Source: a phage
Reading direction: 5' to 3' (one strand)
NCBI GenBank assembly: GCA_029220445.1
Contig: GCA_029220445.1_3666.1
Length of the DNA: 64,000 nt
A program made the position numbers and the translations under genes. The notes under the pieces are model-generated. The model saw nothing but the letters and a program-made list of their open reading frames with translations. It did not search any database and was not told where the DNA came from. Within the stretch, counting starts at the first letter, position 1. Each line of letters begins with the position of its first letter. This document shows positions 34,997 through 38,090 of this stretch, one piece after another.

Positions 34997-35071
34997 ACCA
35001 GTAAAAACTTAAATATCTGTACTATAAGGATTCGTATGTTTTATGTTCGCTCTGGAACAGAGGTTAGTAAC

Positions 35072-35152
35072 TGTCCGTGATACGGACACTACTGTCCGTC
35101 ACGCGGACACATCTGCCCGTAATACGGACACTAACTGTCCGTGATACGGACA
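35072..35152. repeat. four phased 17-bp palindromic sites TGTCCGT-N3-ACGGACA (operator or iteron array)
   Basis: copies at 35072-35088, 35093-35109, 35114-35130, 35136-35152; copies 1 and 4 identical, 2 and 3 each one mismatch; spacing 21, 21, 22 bp. Confidence 0.7.
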
Positions 35153-35639
35153 CATAAAGAATATAACTAAAATAACTAAATAATAAAAAATAAAAGATCT
35201 AGTACTTATGGTACTAAAGTACATATACTTAACTTATGTAGAATATACTAGATCCTAAGTACCATGTTTTAAATTTATTACTTACTGTAGGTAGTGTCGG
35301 CCCTTCATTGGCACTCGCCTACGAGGGGCGAGATGCCGGGCCTCCGTAGTGCACACATGCAGGTCTGTTAACATGTGTGGGAGCGAAGCGATAGCGCAGG
35401 CCAAAGGCCGAGCACTAATGTGGACCACCGACGAAAGCTTGCCAGCGCCGTAAGGAGTCGGTTGAGAGCCTCCCGCGCGAGTTTGGATAAAGTTTATGTG
35501 TGGAAACGGACAATGAGGCCCCTAAATCGCTCCACAGCCATATAAACTATACCAAGTAAGGCAATCGCACCAGTTTGATAGAAAAGCTCGTTACAAAGCG
35601 ATACAGTGAGTTTTTCTATAACTTGAAGAGGAGGCAGCT

Positions 35640-36228: not shown

Positions 36229-36417
36229 ATGAACAACCCGGTAGCAAAGAACTGTAATAAGTTCAACAAGTCTGCAATTCACACTGACAGGAAAAAGAGC
36301 TGGTCTCCTGACATTGACGAGGAGCTTGAGAGTTACTTTGAAGACCTGGTCACTAATGCAGATGAGGTTGCGATTAAAGAATACGCAGACAGGAAGGATA
36401 AGGCCGGAATCTGTTGA
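36229..36417 (+). CDS. hypothetical acidic small protein
   Basis: ATG at 36229 with GAGGAG SD 7 nt upstream; the track's 36208 start overlaps the previous gene. Confidence 0.4.
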   Translation: MNNPVAKNCNKFNKSAIHTDRKKSWSPDIDEELESYFEDLVTNADEVAIKEYADRKDKAGIC

Positions 36418-36442
36418 CAAAAATAGTGTTACCTGATAAGAT
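36414..36442 (+). promoter_or_regulatory. sigma70-type promoter TTGACA-N17-TAAGAT
   Basis: consensus -35 with exact 17-bp spacer upstream of gene 36494. Confidence 0.5.
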
Positions 36443-36493
36443 CTGCAATATGATGTGATGCAATTTTAACTTACGAGGTCTACAGGTAATGCT

Positions 36494-36736
36494 ATGTTTA
36501 AGGTTAAGCTCGTTTTTCGTTCCATGAATGAGGATTATTTAGAAGATGAAGGTGAATTTCGTGCACTGGATGATGCAATAGATTTTGCCAACGACTTAGC
36601 TTGTATGAATACAGGTTATGGGCTATGTTGTTGGGATGGTGGTGTTCAGATCGGTGATAGCAAGATCTTCTACTTCTACCCTGAGCCTGATAACAAACAA
36701 ATTAAGTATGTTTTATTTATTTGTGCTTTACAATGA
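36494..36736 (+). CDS. hypothetical protein
   Basis: 80-aa ORF. Confidence 0.45.
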   Translation: MFKVKLVFRSMNEDYLEDEGEFRALDDAIDFANDLACMNTGYGLCCWDGGVQIGDSKIFYFYPEPDNKQIKYVLFICALQ

Positions 36737-36755
36737 GGTTGTTTTCGTGTATCAT
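36727..36755 (+). promoter_or_regulatory. sigma70-type promoter TTTACA-N17-TATCAT
   Basis: hexamers at 36727-36732 and 36750-36755; would start a transcript entering the GC-rich island. Confidence 0.45.
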
Positions 36756-36759
36756 GATT

Positions 36760-37020
36760 AATATCCAATTTAAAGATGAATTTGATGGCTTTATCTCTGG
36801 ATGCTTTGAAACAGGGTTCGGAGAAGGCTGAGTTCCCCTTAGAGGGCTTGATAGTGCACCACACTTAAAATGGTAGGGGCAGCCAGCACATGACGATGTG
36901 ACCCCAGCCAACCTGTAACAAGGTCGAGCCGAAGCGCGGGTAATAGGCCTCTGGTAACCCACTTGTTGGGTCTTGCTGGTCCAGGACGCTGGACAAGTCG
37001 CAGGGAATACCACCCTGCGG
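36760..37020 (+). ncRNA. candidate structured non-coding RNA (GC-rich ORF-free island)
   Basis: about 260 nt with GC content clearly above the flanks, several perfect hairpins (e.g. CGCAGGG-7nt-CCCTGCG at 36999-37019, GTCCAG-GACG-CTGGAC), own upstream promoter; the only ORF (36717-37058 minus) is low-complexity. Confidence 0.3.
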
Positions 37021-37025
37021 CGAAC

Positions 37026-37054
37026 TTGACAATCAGTATTTGCTATGATAAAAT
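37026..37054 (+). promoter_or_regulatory. sigma70-type promoter TTGACA-N17-TAAAAT
   Basis: consensus -35, 17-bp spacer, AT-rich -10; GGAGGAA SD and ATG 37083 follow. Confidence 0.55.
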
Positions 37055-37082
37055 CCACCTATCACGTGATAATGGAGGAAAC

Positions 37083-37421
37083 ATGGCGGATACAACTAAA
37101 AAGCGTCGCCGTAGAGGCAGACCTCTGAAAGAGGAGTCCAACGCCATTCAGCTAGAGAAGAACATCCTTGATATGAAGGAATCTTTTATAGCGATGGTTC
37201 CAGAAGCTCACAAAGTTTTAAGAGAGCTGATGTTGGACCCGAAAACCAAACAAAATATTCGTCAAAGCATTGCAGAGTATGTTCTTGATAAGGCAGACCG
37301 AATGCAGGAAGAATATGATGAGATGTTTGGTGAAGAGGAAGAGGTGGTAGTGGAAGAGGCTGAAAAACCAGCACCTTTTATGCCATTTACTACAGAAATA
37401 CAGCCTGTTAGCAATAGCTAA
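37083..37421 (+). CDS. hypothetical protein with AT-hook-like basic N-terminus
   Basis: MADTTKKRRRRGRPLKEE contains an RGRP AT-hook core; acidic C-terminal half. Confidence 0.5.
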   Translation: MADTTKKRRRRGRPLKEESNAIQLEKNILDMKESFIAMVPEAHKVLRELMLDPKTKQNIRQSIAEYVLDKADRMQEEYDEMFGEEEEVVVEEAEKPAPFMPFTTEIQPVSNS

Positions 37422-37430
37422 AATATTTTC

Positions 37431-37459
37431 TTGACAAACTTTGCTTAACAGTGTAATAT
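37431..37459 (+). promoter_or_regulatory. sigma70-type promoter TTGACA-N17-TAATAT for the tRNA cluster
   Basis: consensus -35 at 37431-37436, -10 at 37454-37459, about 60 bp upstream of the first tRNA. Confidence 0.55.
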
Positions 37460-37517
37460 TGTAAACATGGTCTCCCACCTTTTCTGGCGGCTAAGGTGTA
37501 AAAGAAAGCCACCCAGT

Positions 37518-37592
37518 GCCCTGTTAGCTTAGTGGATAAAGCAGCGGCCTTCTAAGCCGTTGACACTGGTTCGAGTCCAGTACGGGGTGCCA
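37518..37592 (+). tRNA. tRNA-Arg (anticodon TCT)
   Basis: manual fold: 7-bp acceptor, D arm GCTT/AAGC, anticodon loop CTTCTAA with U33, T loop TTCGAGT, encoded CCA. Confidence 0.8.
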
Positions 37593-37986: not shown

Positions 37987-38083
37987 GCTAGGTAAGCCCT
38001 TTGGCAAGGGCGAGGATTTTTAATCCTGAAAATAGACGAGGTAGTCGTTGAATACATAGGTGGTTCGATTCCATCACCTAGCA
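37987..38083 (+). tRNA. tRNA-like element with aberrant anticodon arm (possible Lys-UUU variant or pseudo-tRNA)
   Basis: perfect 7-bp acceptor GCTAGGT/ACCTAGC, canonical D arm and T arm, but the anticodon-arm position is a 5-bp stem with a 5-nt loop TTTTA (or 4-bp stem with loop TTTTTAA) and about 30 extra nt precede the T arm; no encoded CCA. Confidence 0.35.
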
Positions 38084-38090
38084 CCTTTTT

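Follow-up and report, generated by a model that had tools for sequence, protein, structure and literature searches.

T4 species 1 and 2 (rnaC and rnaD) are non-coding, structured phage RNAs encoded among tRNA genes, and their role is still unknown. GOLLD and ROOL are orphan structured RNAs recognised by comparative genomics; they are frequent in phages and prophages and often adjoin tRNA genes. Phage tRNA arrays themselves counter tRNA-cleaving defences. The locus described here lies in a 64,000-nt stretch of phage DNA (contig GCA_029220445.1_3666.1; hereafter the window) from an rV5-like phage (Vequintavirus). Like T4 species 1 and 2, it is non-coding, structured, phage-encoded and sited with tRNA genes, and the first-pass annotation had drawn the analogy with the small stable RNAs of T4-type phages. 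The two are not homologous; the locus is instead homologous to an unannotated T4 element between denV and vs.8. For most T4-like records one match is listed, and wherever the locus was examined this match fell between denV and vs.8, about 6 kb away from species 1 and 2. When the family model R1 was run with filters off on the 10-kb T4 tRNA region, no hit scored above 10 bits (E 0.3 or worse), and none was on the tRNA strand near tRNA-Arg, the neighbour of the genes for species 1 and 2. GOLLD and ROOL resemble the present element as orphan, phage-borne, tRNA-adjacent structured RNAs; however, their size is about 5-8 times greater, their phages infect mostly Firmicutes and other hosts, and no Rfam match to them was found here. 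They are also the subject of a cryo-EM preprint (10.1101/2024.12.08.627333).

The features of the locus are as follows.

36727-36755, plus strand: sigma-70-type promoter TTTACA-N17-TATCAT, matching 10 of 12 consensus positions and kept in close relatives
36756-36834, plus strand: lineage-specific 5' leader, outside the cross-phage family
36835-36872, plus strand: 5' module, a CCCC-TTAGA-GGG hairpin followed by CTTGATAGTGCACCACAC and TTAAAATGGTA, in the rV5 group only
36876-36905, plus strand: helix P1, GGGG (36876-36879) with CCCC (36902-36905), with compensatory changes
36907-36948, plus strand: helix P2, GCC (36907-36909) with GGC (36946-36948), closing the core domain, with compensatory changes
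36911-36924, plus strand: hairpin P3, ACCT-GTAACA-AGGT, whose hexaloop starts like a GNRA loop
36925-36943, plus strand: nearly invariant 19-nt junction strand CGAGCCGAAGCGCGGGTAA, family consensus TC[GAT]AGCC-N-R-AG-N-GCGG-TAA
36951-36954, plus strand: pseudoknot 3' strand CTGG, pairing with CCAG at 36883-36886, with complementarity and double changes
36957-37019, plus strand: three accessory hairpins (36957-36971, 36979-36994 and 36999-37019), specific to rV5-like phages
37026-37421, plus strand: context, promoter (37026-37054) and gene 37083-37421 (ATG at 37083) of the rv5_gp070 family, phrog_3330

This island is best explained as an RNA gene, and as neither a protein gene nor a chance GC-rich spacer. 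The first-pass annotation had seen in it a structured, non-coding plus-strand RNA gene with its own promoter in a stable-RNA/tRNA region, and homology, covariation and context back that proposal. Its compositional claim was accurate, with a GC content of 0.55-0.56 over 36800-37049 against about 0.40 in the flanks, as were the claims of a separate next promoter (TTGACA-N17-TAAAAT at 37026-37054, 11 of 12 positions) and of a position upstream of the tRNA cluster, which begins at 37518 with gene 37083 between island and cluster. The promoter said to point into the island is likewise present; however, because sigma-70-type promoter-like sites are frequent in the window (12 against 7.0 ± 2.8 in shuffles), this match by itself proves little. 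Its predicted transcription start is at about 36762. The divergent relatives L055, L056, L116, L119 and L121 carry TTGACA-N17-TATACT instead, ending about 8 nt 5' of the conserved 5' module, and these divergent rV5-like contigs have a strong dedicated promoter, in keeping with a stand-alone RNA. No U-tract terminator follows the accessory hairpins and none lies between the element and gene 37083, and transcripts are therefore expected to run on into that gene, a homologue of which is placed within the tRNA cluster in other Vequintavirinae genera. ARAGORN placed the seven tRNA genes of the window at 37518 or beyond, and neither its cloverleaf search nor the Rfam RF00005 model found a tRNA or tRNA-like gene in the island. 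The island is unannotated in most of the 119 near-identical records.

Comparison across phages points to 36873-36961, comprising P1, P2, P3, the pseudoknot and the invariant junction, as the conserved functional unit. The unit folds into a compact domain in which CCAG in the internal loop of P1 pairs with the downstream CUGG, and in which the short P2 encloses P3, with its GNRA-like loop, together with the 19-nt strand. P1 encloses the pseudoknot 5' strand (36883-36886) and a hairpin, CACAT-GACG-ATGTG (36887-36900), which itself covaries, reading CTACG-GACG-CGTAG in L055 and L056. An alignment for covariation, proposed as a check in the first-pass annotation, was run, and P1, P2 and the pseudoknot all showed many compensatory changes. 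Across 45 distinct sequences, P1 carried them in 5 of 5 pairs, with 94% of cells paired, and P2 carried them in 3 of 3; for P1 and P2 together in all lineages, 92.8% of cells were paired, compared to at most 57% when the partners were slid. The P3 stem was invariant in 44 of the 45 sequences (GCCT/AGGC in one second copy), and its loop varied as GTAATA, GTGAAA, GGAATA or GTAGCA. For the pseudoknot, double changes were seen in 5 of 5 pairs, with 75% of cells paired versus at most 41% slid, and the cognate strands had a complementarity of -6.87 kcal/mol versus -3.73 ± 0.38 for permuted partners (0 of 20,000 permutations as low). A structure-blind MAFFT alignment gave 87% of cells paired versus at most 53% slid, with double changes in 11 pairs, and the pseudoknot pairing was likewise supported on it. 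An alternative pairing of TGCTGG (36974-36979) with CCAGCA (36883-36888) is possible in the window. P2 includes G-U pairs, which the opposite strand would turn into A-C; the RNA therefore lies on the plus strand, the strand that gene orientation fixes as well. In contrast, folding energy was only marginally unusual (36756-37030: z = -2.16 on the plus strand, 5 of 200 shuffles folding as well, and z = -0.80 on the minus strand; 36873-37022: z = -1.04), and the feature is therefore established by the comparative evidence, not by thermodynamics alone.

The hairpins that the first-pass annotation had singled out were found where it placed them when the sequence was checked, among them ACCCA-CTTGT-TGGGT (36957-36971), GTCCAG-GACG-CTGGAC (36979-36994) and CGCAGGG-AATACCA-CCCTGCG (36999-37019). 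Their standing as the key feature survived only in part, because those at 36957-37019 are accessories of rV5-like phages outside the conserved unit. The first of the three is mostly deleted in the close relative L065, and the accessory region differs in L055 and L056.

The element was then recognised far beyond the rV5 group. In the denV-vs.8 spacer, about 460 T4-like records match positions 36904-36947, and the T4 element used as query matches 1,112 phage records. A covariance model built from 18 T4-like sequences only found a single site in the whole 64-kb window, at 36873-36961 (30 bits, E about 3e-5), along with 48 sites in the fetched loci and 18 more in further loci. The invariant core of the family, CCUGU-R-A-N-AAGGUC-N-AGCC-N-R-AG-N-GCGGUAA, lies at 36912-36943 with one extra G (GCGGGTAA); P1 stands directly 5' of it and P2 closes it, both aligned by a model blind to the window, and the pseudoknot joins the P1 interior to a strand just 3' of P2. 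As judged from sequence, one fold with one invariant strand and differing helix sequences recurs in more than 1,100 phage genomes of at least six unrelated lineages infecting Enterobacteriaceae. Its members are about 1,000 T4-like phages, phiWec190, 45-47 kb siphophages, Ivi-like phages and several uncultured phages; the L021 type is a minimal form of 75 nt. The family model found no second copy in the window; the other GC-rich island noted there, at 35290-35545, gave no match and is confined to rV5-like phages. The syntenic slot of six phages from other Vequintavirinae genera (PVP-SE1, 4MG, Mydo, CR3, pEp_SNUABM_01 and TH18) holds no copy; in five of them it is occupied by tRNA genes, and the TH18 record annotates no tRNAs. 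The element is restricted to phages as far as searched: none of 5,426 E. coli genomes gave a blastn match, and two pattern hits were the sole result from 185,579 species-representative bacterial genomes; these scored about 6-9 bits by the model, as expected by chance, as did a metagenome pattern hit (L048) that was rejected for that reason.

A search against Rfam 15, also proposed in the first-pass annotation, did not yield a known structure family: tRNAs alone passed the gathering threshold in the window. At E<=10 nothing overlapped 36835-37025, chance snoRNA-type matches being confined to the 5' leader, and a match to rli43 at 35079-35335 was dismissed as chance (26.5 bits against a threshold of 100). 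The copies of T4, phiWec190, Ivi and the 46-kb phage (L021/L033) likewise had no Rfam match at gathering or at E<=10. The core sequence was not found in the papers searched, and an anonymous entry is possible among the 10,006 viral structured RNA candidates catalogued in PMC10690425. The pseudoknotted RNA family with this core is previously undescribed. It offers a new family for Rfam-type annotation and a clean model of a compact pseudoknot fold.

On balance, the element is probably a discrete stable non-coding RNA that matures with tRNA-type transcripts and makes its invariant junction available to a conserved partner. Outside the T4-likes, it lies mostly within or beside tRNA arrays, where tRNA 3' ends, long RNase III-like stems or intrinsic terminators mark its borders, and this setting makes a discrete stable RNA the most likely mode. 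In L109, 10 tRNAs precede the element, which begins 3 nt beyond the final one, and a terminator follows immediately; in L072, L097 and L098 it lies just 3' of tRNAs; in phiWec190 it lies between tRNA-Thr and tRNA-Gly. In the 46-kb siphophages it is the second of several structured units that form an array, each closed by long stems, with tRNAs downstream, and in the Ivi-like phages it sits between two terminators without a credible ORF. Its orientation is always that of the surrounding transcription. An early sigma-70-type promoter at 36727-36755 would transcribe the island on the plus strand, processing of the tRNA-type transcript would yield an RNA of about 90-150 nt, and the genomic context suggests that this RNA is stable. 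It would then act in trans by offering the invariant junction to a partner, for which proteins of host or phage, RNAs and small molecules are all candidates; no complementary copy of the junction strand, as a trans target, occurs within the window. The sharing of a near-invariant 19-nt strand by phages with no other common DNA argues for a strongly constrained interaction, whose partner would be common to Enterobacteriaceae or to these phages. If this reading is right, a conserved pseudoknotted RNA has been overlooked in more than 1,000 sequenced phages, among them T4, which has been studied better than any other. Against the stable-RNA reading stand the lack of a terminator after the element in the window and a folding energy only weakly better than that of shuffles.

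We tentatively consider that the family may represent a new functional class, either a decoy or sponge against a host immune or tRNA-targeting factor, exchanged horizontally among virulent phages of enterobacteria from unrelated families, or a new class of self-cleaving ribozyme or ligand-sensing RNA. Type III antitoxin RNAs and phage pseudo-ToxI provide a conceptual model for a decoy, as they are pseudoknotted and their phage-borne copies can neutralise host defence; however, the present element has no E. coli or other bacterial counterpart to mimic, and no tandem or direct repeats of the type III antitoxin kind (about 34-36 nt) occur in 36600-37200. The T4 copy stands at the head of the operon encoding Vs.3, a Thoeris inhibitor (PMC13243611), and Vs.8, which activates Avs2 (PMC13601566). 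Were the new class real, a functional RNA heading the vs.8-vs.3 counter-defence operon would have gone unrecognised in T4 to this day. A role in host takeover or counter-defence is possible, and the position with tRNA arrays and with this operon makes it testable in T4 and rV5 genetics.

A doubtful though serious alternative is a cis-acting leader, in which a ligand- or protein-binding fold (riboswitch-like, a translational operator, an mRNA stabiliser or a processive antiterminator) would control the genes downstream, which in rV5 are 37083 and the tRNAs and in T4-like phages form the vs.8-vs.3 operon. In 44 of 46 T4-like loci the element is directly 5' of vs.8, 60-110 nt before its start codon with no terminator between, and the phages that carry vs.8 are nearly the same as those that carry the element; this position and shared distribution resemble a leader and count against a discrete stable RNA. 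Some T4-like genera have two tandem copies ahead of vs.8, as with some riboswitches, and the T4 region upstream of vs.8 served as 'the promoter of vs.8' for vs.3-vs.8 expression (PMC13243611). Annotations of T4 often wrongly take the element for the start of vs.8. In the T4-likes it starts right at the stop codon of the upstream gene, which varies (denV, internal-protein genes and others). Aptamers typically combine an invariant junction and a pseudoknot within about 80-120 nt, as is seen here, where the conserved domain has covarying helices as well, and the missing terminator before gene 37083 is also in keeping with a leader. However, no downstream gene is conserved across lineages. A consistent 5' UTR position ahead of one gene class was found in the T4-likes (vs.8) only; elsewhere the element precedes tRNAs, terminators or unrelated genes, Vs.8 is restricted to T4-likes, and no Vs.8 or Vs.7 homologue was found in the window. 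Furthermore, the copies of phiWec190, L072, L097 and L098 sit among tRNAs, that of L109 is followed by a terminator after its tRNA array, rV5 has a strong separate promoter between element and gene 37083, and the long stems around the element in the 46-kb phages look like excision signals. The T4-like linker to the ribosome-binding site is variable, and inspection by eye of 21 T4-like 3' regions revealed no conserved terminator or Shine-Dalgarno-sequestering helix. For an antiterminator in particular, the terminator about 75 nt downstream of the element in Ivi-like phages would be suitable, and terminators 3' of the element in some phages recall antitermination RNAs (lambda nut, HK022 put and rrn boxA), as does the resemblance, and no more, of P3 to the short boxB hairpin of lambda nut with its GNRA-like loop; unlike nut and put, the element lacks a link to an N-like protein, and its conserved junction has no counterpart there. 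The repeated TGCTCTTT of the 46-kb phage arrays is the start of the rrn boxA consensus.

A role as small self-cleaving ribozyme, or as a processing signal dedicated to cutting polycistronic or tRNA-array transcripts at set points, is unlikely. Small aptamers and ribozymes (twister and pistol; ZTP, fluoride and preQ1 riboswitches) share its scale of about 80-120 nt, its invariant junction strands and short covarying helices, and a pseudoknot linking the 3' tail to a hairpin or internal loop; the size, the roughly 30 invariant junction nucleotides, the covarying stems and the pseudoknot recall the twister, pistol and hatchet types in particular. Varied intergenic sites and phage tRNA arrays are also frequent settings for small ribozymes, and the core CCCAAGCGCGGUAA may resemble the twister P4-loop sequence. 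However, neither sequence nor structure matches any of these RNAs, no consistent class of gene lies downstream, and, unlike in known pseudoknotted aptamers and ribozymes, P3 and the 19-nt strand lie inside P2, set between P1 and the pseudoknot 3' strand. A twister is marked by a loop whose CCC and GC make two tertiary pseudoknots. No ribozyme family of Rfam 15, twister included, matched even at E<=10, the twister-like CCC/GGG tertiary pairing is not conserved, its third C being variable, and CHI14- and Karamvirus-type members pair CUGG/CCAG with an upstream strand instead.

A horizontally spread DNA-level element (a recombination anchor, homing target or regulatory-protein site) with an incidental RNA fold is very improbable. 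The core is 85-90% identical between phages without other common DNA, and the varying upstream gene in T4-likes is what would be seen at a recombination junction; however, P1, P2 and the pseudoknot keep pairing despite sequence change, with G-U pairs allowed on one strand only, a pattern that DNA-level selection would not yield, and the constant agreement with the direction of transcription also argues against it.

That a minus-strand ORF (36717-37058, 113 aa, or 36865-37032, 55 aa) is the real gene and the hairpins incidental is scarcely credible, for although one record annotates a CDS there and the frames are open, close relatives have 1-nt indels that shift the frame (36938, 36950), have lost 10 nt at 36962-36971 and show no third-position bias in their substitutions, the ORF is missing from the homologous element in other phages, and covariation and every neighbouring gene indicate the plus strand. 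The first-pass annotation was inexact in listing a minus-strand frame as the only ORF; there are also plus-strand ORFs of 30 and 36 aa, and none of the four is conserved.

Three further resemblances were judged coincidental or contradicted. GUAACAAGGU has a 10-nt identity to the 3' minor domain of 16S rRNA, and this fails as family members have U, A or C at the position of its C. GUGCGGUAA is also present in E. coli RNase P RNA and was set aside with the others. The P3 loop brings to mind the tRNA-Tyr anticodon loop, from which it departs in having 6 nt closed by a U-A pair and GUGAAA and GGAAUA variants.

The regions 5' of the conserved unit belong to the rV5 lineage. The 5' module (36835-36872) is nearly invariant in the alignment with L055 and L056 and is missing in other lineages. 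A circular permutation relating it (GUGCACCA...UGG) to a T4-like 3' hairpin (GYGCC-A-NGGAA-UGGC) was considered, and the candidate pairs were uninformative. In the 5' leader lies a tiny ORF (36751-36831), along with a hairpin predicted at about 36787-36829. Its 21-nt block AAAGATGAATTTGATGGCTTT (36772-36792) is unchanged in relatives whose identity elsewhere is about 75%.

The window derives from an rV5-like myovirus (Vequintavirus), and 119 phage records are at least 95% identical to it over 1.1 kb around the island at 36756-37025, which is without annotation in most of these records, a few of them calling small ORFs on either strand. A sensitive blastn search with the island returned these 119 rV5-like records and about 460 T4-like phages, the T4-like match being 44 nt long (36904-36947), 85-90% identical, and located in the denV-vs.8 spacer on the transcribed strand. 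The T4 spacer, used as query, matched 1,112 records, comprising T4-like phages of Escherichia, Shigella, Klebsiella, Enterobacter, Yersinia, Salmonella, Citrobacter and Serratia, as well as rV5-likes, phiWec190 (Phapecoctavirus) and the 45-kb phage Ivi. Pattern scans of IMG/VR and metagenomes added 46-kb Klebsiella/E. coli siphophages, Ivi-like contigs, divergent rV5-like contigs (L055, L056, L116, L119, L121) and uncultured phages (L072, L097, L098, L109, L113, L122); because these scans demanded an exact match to a degenerate pattern, divergent members are under-sampled. All members share the core CCUGU-R-A-N-AAGGUC-N-AGCC-N-R-AG-N-GCGGUAA, and its flanks have zero sequence similarity between lineages. 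A covariance model trained on 18 T4-like sequences alone (R1) detected 48 sites over the loci examined and exactly one in the 64-kb window, at 36873-36961 (30.1 bits, E ~3e-5, E-values of the models built here being rough). Among the matches to 36400-37500 are 18 GenBank records titled 'Campylobacter phage' (MG0656xx) that name C. jejuni as host and agree with this E. coli rV5-like phage at 99.8-100% identity; their host attribution looks doubtful.

The element and its surroundings in the window are as follows.

36727-36755: promoter
36751-36831: tiny ORF
36756-36834: lineage-specific leader
36772-36792: 21-nt block within the leader, identical in relatives that are about 75% identical elsewhere
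36835-36872: 5' module restricted to the rV5 group
36876-79 with 36902-05: P1
36883-86: pseudoknot 5' strand
36887-36900: inner hairpin
36907-09 with 36946-48: P2
36911-24: P3
36925-43: invariant strand
36951-54 (alternative 36974-79): pseudoknot 3' strand
up to 37019: three accessory hairpins

The features that the first-pass annotation had described are all there. Its TTTACA-N17-TATCAT promoter at 36727-36755 matches at 10 of 12 positions, promoter-like sites being common in this early region (12 vs 7.0 ± 2.8 in shuffles); GC content reaches 0.55-0.56 against surroundings of about 0.40; a separate strong promoter (37026-37054) precedes the gene starting at 37083, with no terminator between the element and this promoter; and the tRNA cluster begins at 37518. 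Hairpins lie at 36887-36900, 36957-36971, 36979-36994 and 36999-37019, and those it stressed are accessory: one is largely deleted in a related locus (L065), and the accessory-hairpin region of L055 and L056 differs from that of the window. It had also called the island free of ORFs save one minus-strand frame; open frames do exist on both strands, but none is conserved among close relatives, in which single-nucleotide indels (36938 and 36950) and a 10-nt deletion disrupt them, and codon-position bias of substitutions was absent. Folding energy was only marginally unusual (z = -2.16 on the plus strand, -0.80 on the minus strand, -1.04 for the core alone). The 21-nt block, AAAGATGAATTTGATGGCTTT, is the same in rV5-type phages and in L055, L056 and L119, whose flanking genes are about 75% identical; it codes KDEFDGF, inside a 26-aa tiny ORF in the window and an 8-aa one (MKDEFDGF) in L055, and where it sits with respect to the promoter is not the same in the two groups.

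Covariation, which the first-pass annotation had proposed looking for, was evident. Visual inspection suggested that the flanks form the same helices from differing sequences, and formal tests bore this out. In a structure-blind MAFFT alignment of the 18 T4-like sequences, 87% of cells in the proposed helices were paired vs at most 53% with the 3' partners slid, both sides had changed in 11 pairs, and the covariation score was 0.289 vs at most 0.098. In the R1-based alignment of 45 distinct sequences, compensatory changes were present in 5/5 pairs of P1 and 3/3 pairs of P2, with 92.8% of cells paired vs at most 57% when slid. P1 takes at least nine forms, among them AAAGG/CCUUU, GGGAA/UUCCC, GGGG/CCCC, GAAUG/CAUUC, GAGUG/CACUC, GUGUA/UACAC, GAGGG/CCCUC, GGAAC/GUUCC and GUAGG/UCUAC, with the additional form AGCGC/GCGCU in L109. 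G-U pairs are present, where the opposite strand would have A-C. Furthermore, the interior of P1 forms a pseudoknot with the strand immediately 3' of P2, the cognate pairs including CCUGA/UCAGG, CUCGA/UCGAG, CACAC/GUGUG, CCGA/UCGG, CGGAA/UUCCG, CGGUU/AGCCG, CUCCGG/CCGGAG and UGAGGG/CCCUUA, and CCAG/CUGG in the window. For 25 sequences that differ in their 5' strands, the mean energy of the cognate duplex was -6.87 kcal/mol vs -3.73 ± 0.38 with permuted partners, and 0 of 20,000 permutations reached the cognate value. A model-fitted alignment gave double changes in 5/5 pseudoknot pairs, 75% of cells paired vs at most 41% slid, and a covariation of 0.61 vs at most 0.16; this alignment is biased towards the structure, whereas the structure-blind test and the energy permutation are free of that bias. 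The P3 stem ACCU/AGGU is invariant, the sole exception being one second copy with GCCU/AGGC, and its hexaloop starts GNRA-like (GUAA, GUGA, GGAA). Next comes a 19-nt strand, running from P3 to the 3' strand of P2, that hardly varies and for which no internal partner is obvious.

The family appears to be undescribed so far. The structure-family search suggested in the first-pass annotation came back empty, no Rfam 15 family matching any copy (window, T4, phiWec190, Ivi, 46-kb phages), and its analogy with the stable RNAs known from the tRNA cluster of T4 did not hold, as the element is unrelated to them. ARAGORN finds no tRNA at the element, and ToxI-like tandem repeats are absent. No counterpart was found in E. 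coli genomes or in 185,579 prokaryotic species (one genome each; two pattern matches scored about 9 bits by the model), and a literature search found the core sequence in no paper. The core may bear a partial resemblance to the twister P4 loop; the tertiary pairing that this implies is not conserved. Another GC-rich ORF-free island at about 35290-35545 (GC up to 0.61), ahead of which lie AT-rich sequence and the inverted repeat GTCCGTGATACGGAC in three copies (35071-35155), is not matched by R1 and occurs in the 119 rV5-like records only (84-99% identity); a weak Rfam rli43 match at 35079-35335, within this region of 35060-35545 (26.5 bits vs a threshold of 100), is due to chance.

In phiWec190 the element has tRNA-Thr on one side and tRNA-Gly on the other. 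In the uncultured phage L109, 3 nt separate the element from the last of ten tRNAs, and an intrinsic terminator directly follows it; between these bounds the functional unit measures about 95 nt. The element also immediately follows tRNAs in L072, L097 and L098. In the 46-kb siphophages it is unit 2 of at least three structured units with a tRNA cluster downstream, each unit closed by a long stem, AGUGCUCUUxxCGUUGUG...CACAAC...GGUAAGAGCA (as DNA, AGTGCTCTT(A/T)(T/C)CGTTGTG ... CACAAC...GGTAAGAGCA(T/C)T; loci L033 1930-2330 and L015 1930-2140), which looks like an RNase III processing stem. These stems contain boxA-like UGCUCUUU / TGCTCTTT, the latter presumably corresponding to how the rrn boxA consensus begins; the stem is kept around the phiWec190 copy with a G-U change. 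Ivi-like phages have terminators on both sides of the element and no credible ORF, and in divergent rV5-like contigs, which keep synteny, a TTGACA-N17-TATACT promoter of high strength precedes P1 by about 45 nt. In Seunavirus, Mydovirus, Certrevirus and Henunavirus the slot of the rV5 element holds tRNA genes and the rv5_gp070-family neighbour gene lies inside the tRNA cluster; by model, no copy occupies that slot. Orphan structured phage RNAs alongside tRNA genes are a known kind. Recurrence in tRNA arrays, flanking boundaries (tRNA ends, long stems or terminators), dedicated promoters, and the lack of a downstream gene common to all lineages favour a discrete stable RNA, the reading towards which we lean; such an RNA would act through its invariant junction. 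Its expression and processing are predicted, and we suggest tentatively that it may prove a new functional class.

The main rival, a cis-acting leader, is unlikely though worth serious weight: the arrangement in T4-likes looks like one, with the element starting directly at the stop codon of the upstream gene, whichever gene that is, and the vs.8 start codon following 60-110 nt later in 44/46 loci (155-180 nt where a second, degenerate tandem copy intervenes), but no conserved expression platform was seen in the T4-like 3' regions. vs.8 is restricted to T4-likes (1,010 records). Its product, Vs.8, resembles terminase ATPases and can activate Avs2 (PMC13601566), and vs.3, farther down the vs.8-vs.3 gene run, codes for an inhibitor of Thoeris IV (PMC13243611). 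A ribozyme that cleaves itself, or a processing element, would be compatible with all contexts and is rather improbable. Action at the DNA level, which we consider very improbable, and a minus-strand gene, hardly credible, are contradicted by the strand-specific covariation and the frameshifting indels.

In some T4-like genera (Karamvirus-like, PEi20-like) the first copy is followed, ahead of vs.8, by a degenerate second one in tandem (loci L030 5078-5170, L036 9101-9194, L035 3' of the first copy, and L068), with a short hairpin (GCC-CGC-GGC, GUC-CGC-GAC or GAGAC-CGC-GUCUC) instead of the junction, then GGUAA. T4-like copies generally (L003 1545-1560) bear a conserved 3' extension, AUGGA-N(6-9)-AUG-YGCC-A-WGGAA-YGGCCC, which forms a small AGGAA-type-loop hairpin, accompanied by another GGA in single-stranded sequence, with the vs.8 ribosome-binding site 15-25 nt further on; the two GGA motifs are reminiscent of CsrA-binding sites. 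In T4 record OL964735.1 (L003 1491-2141) an annotated 216-aa 'hypothetical protein' begins within the element, and the conserved Vs.8 start is an ATG about 110 nt downstream (MRTFLTGPYLSLMNAF...); this mis-annotated 5' extension is probably present in many T4-like records. The rv5_gp070-family gene of the window (37083-37421, phrog_3330), found within tRNA clusters in all examined Vequintavirinae genera with tRNA-annotated records, has the N-terminal sequence KKRRRRGRPLK, which looks like an AT-hook or arginine-rich RNA-binding motif. The 99 nt at 37987-38085 are called tRNA-like by ARAGORN, the anticodon being abnormal in its 4 bases; this gene reaches only 35.5 bits under the Rfam tRNA model and is annotated as tRNA-Lys-TTT in phage Gotham. 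Unit 1 of the 46-kb array (L033 1760-1950; locus L021 6100-6290) is covered by no annotated feature and belongs to no Rfam family. Its matches, in about 800 phage records, span many genera, among them Felixounavirus, Kuttervirus, G7C-like phages, P1 and P7, and it is probably another phage RNA that is widespread and has escaped annotation.
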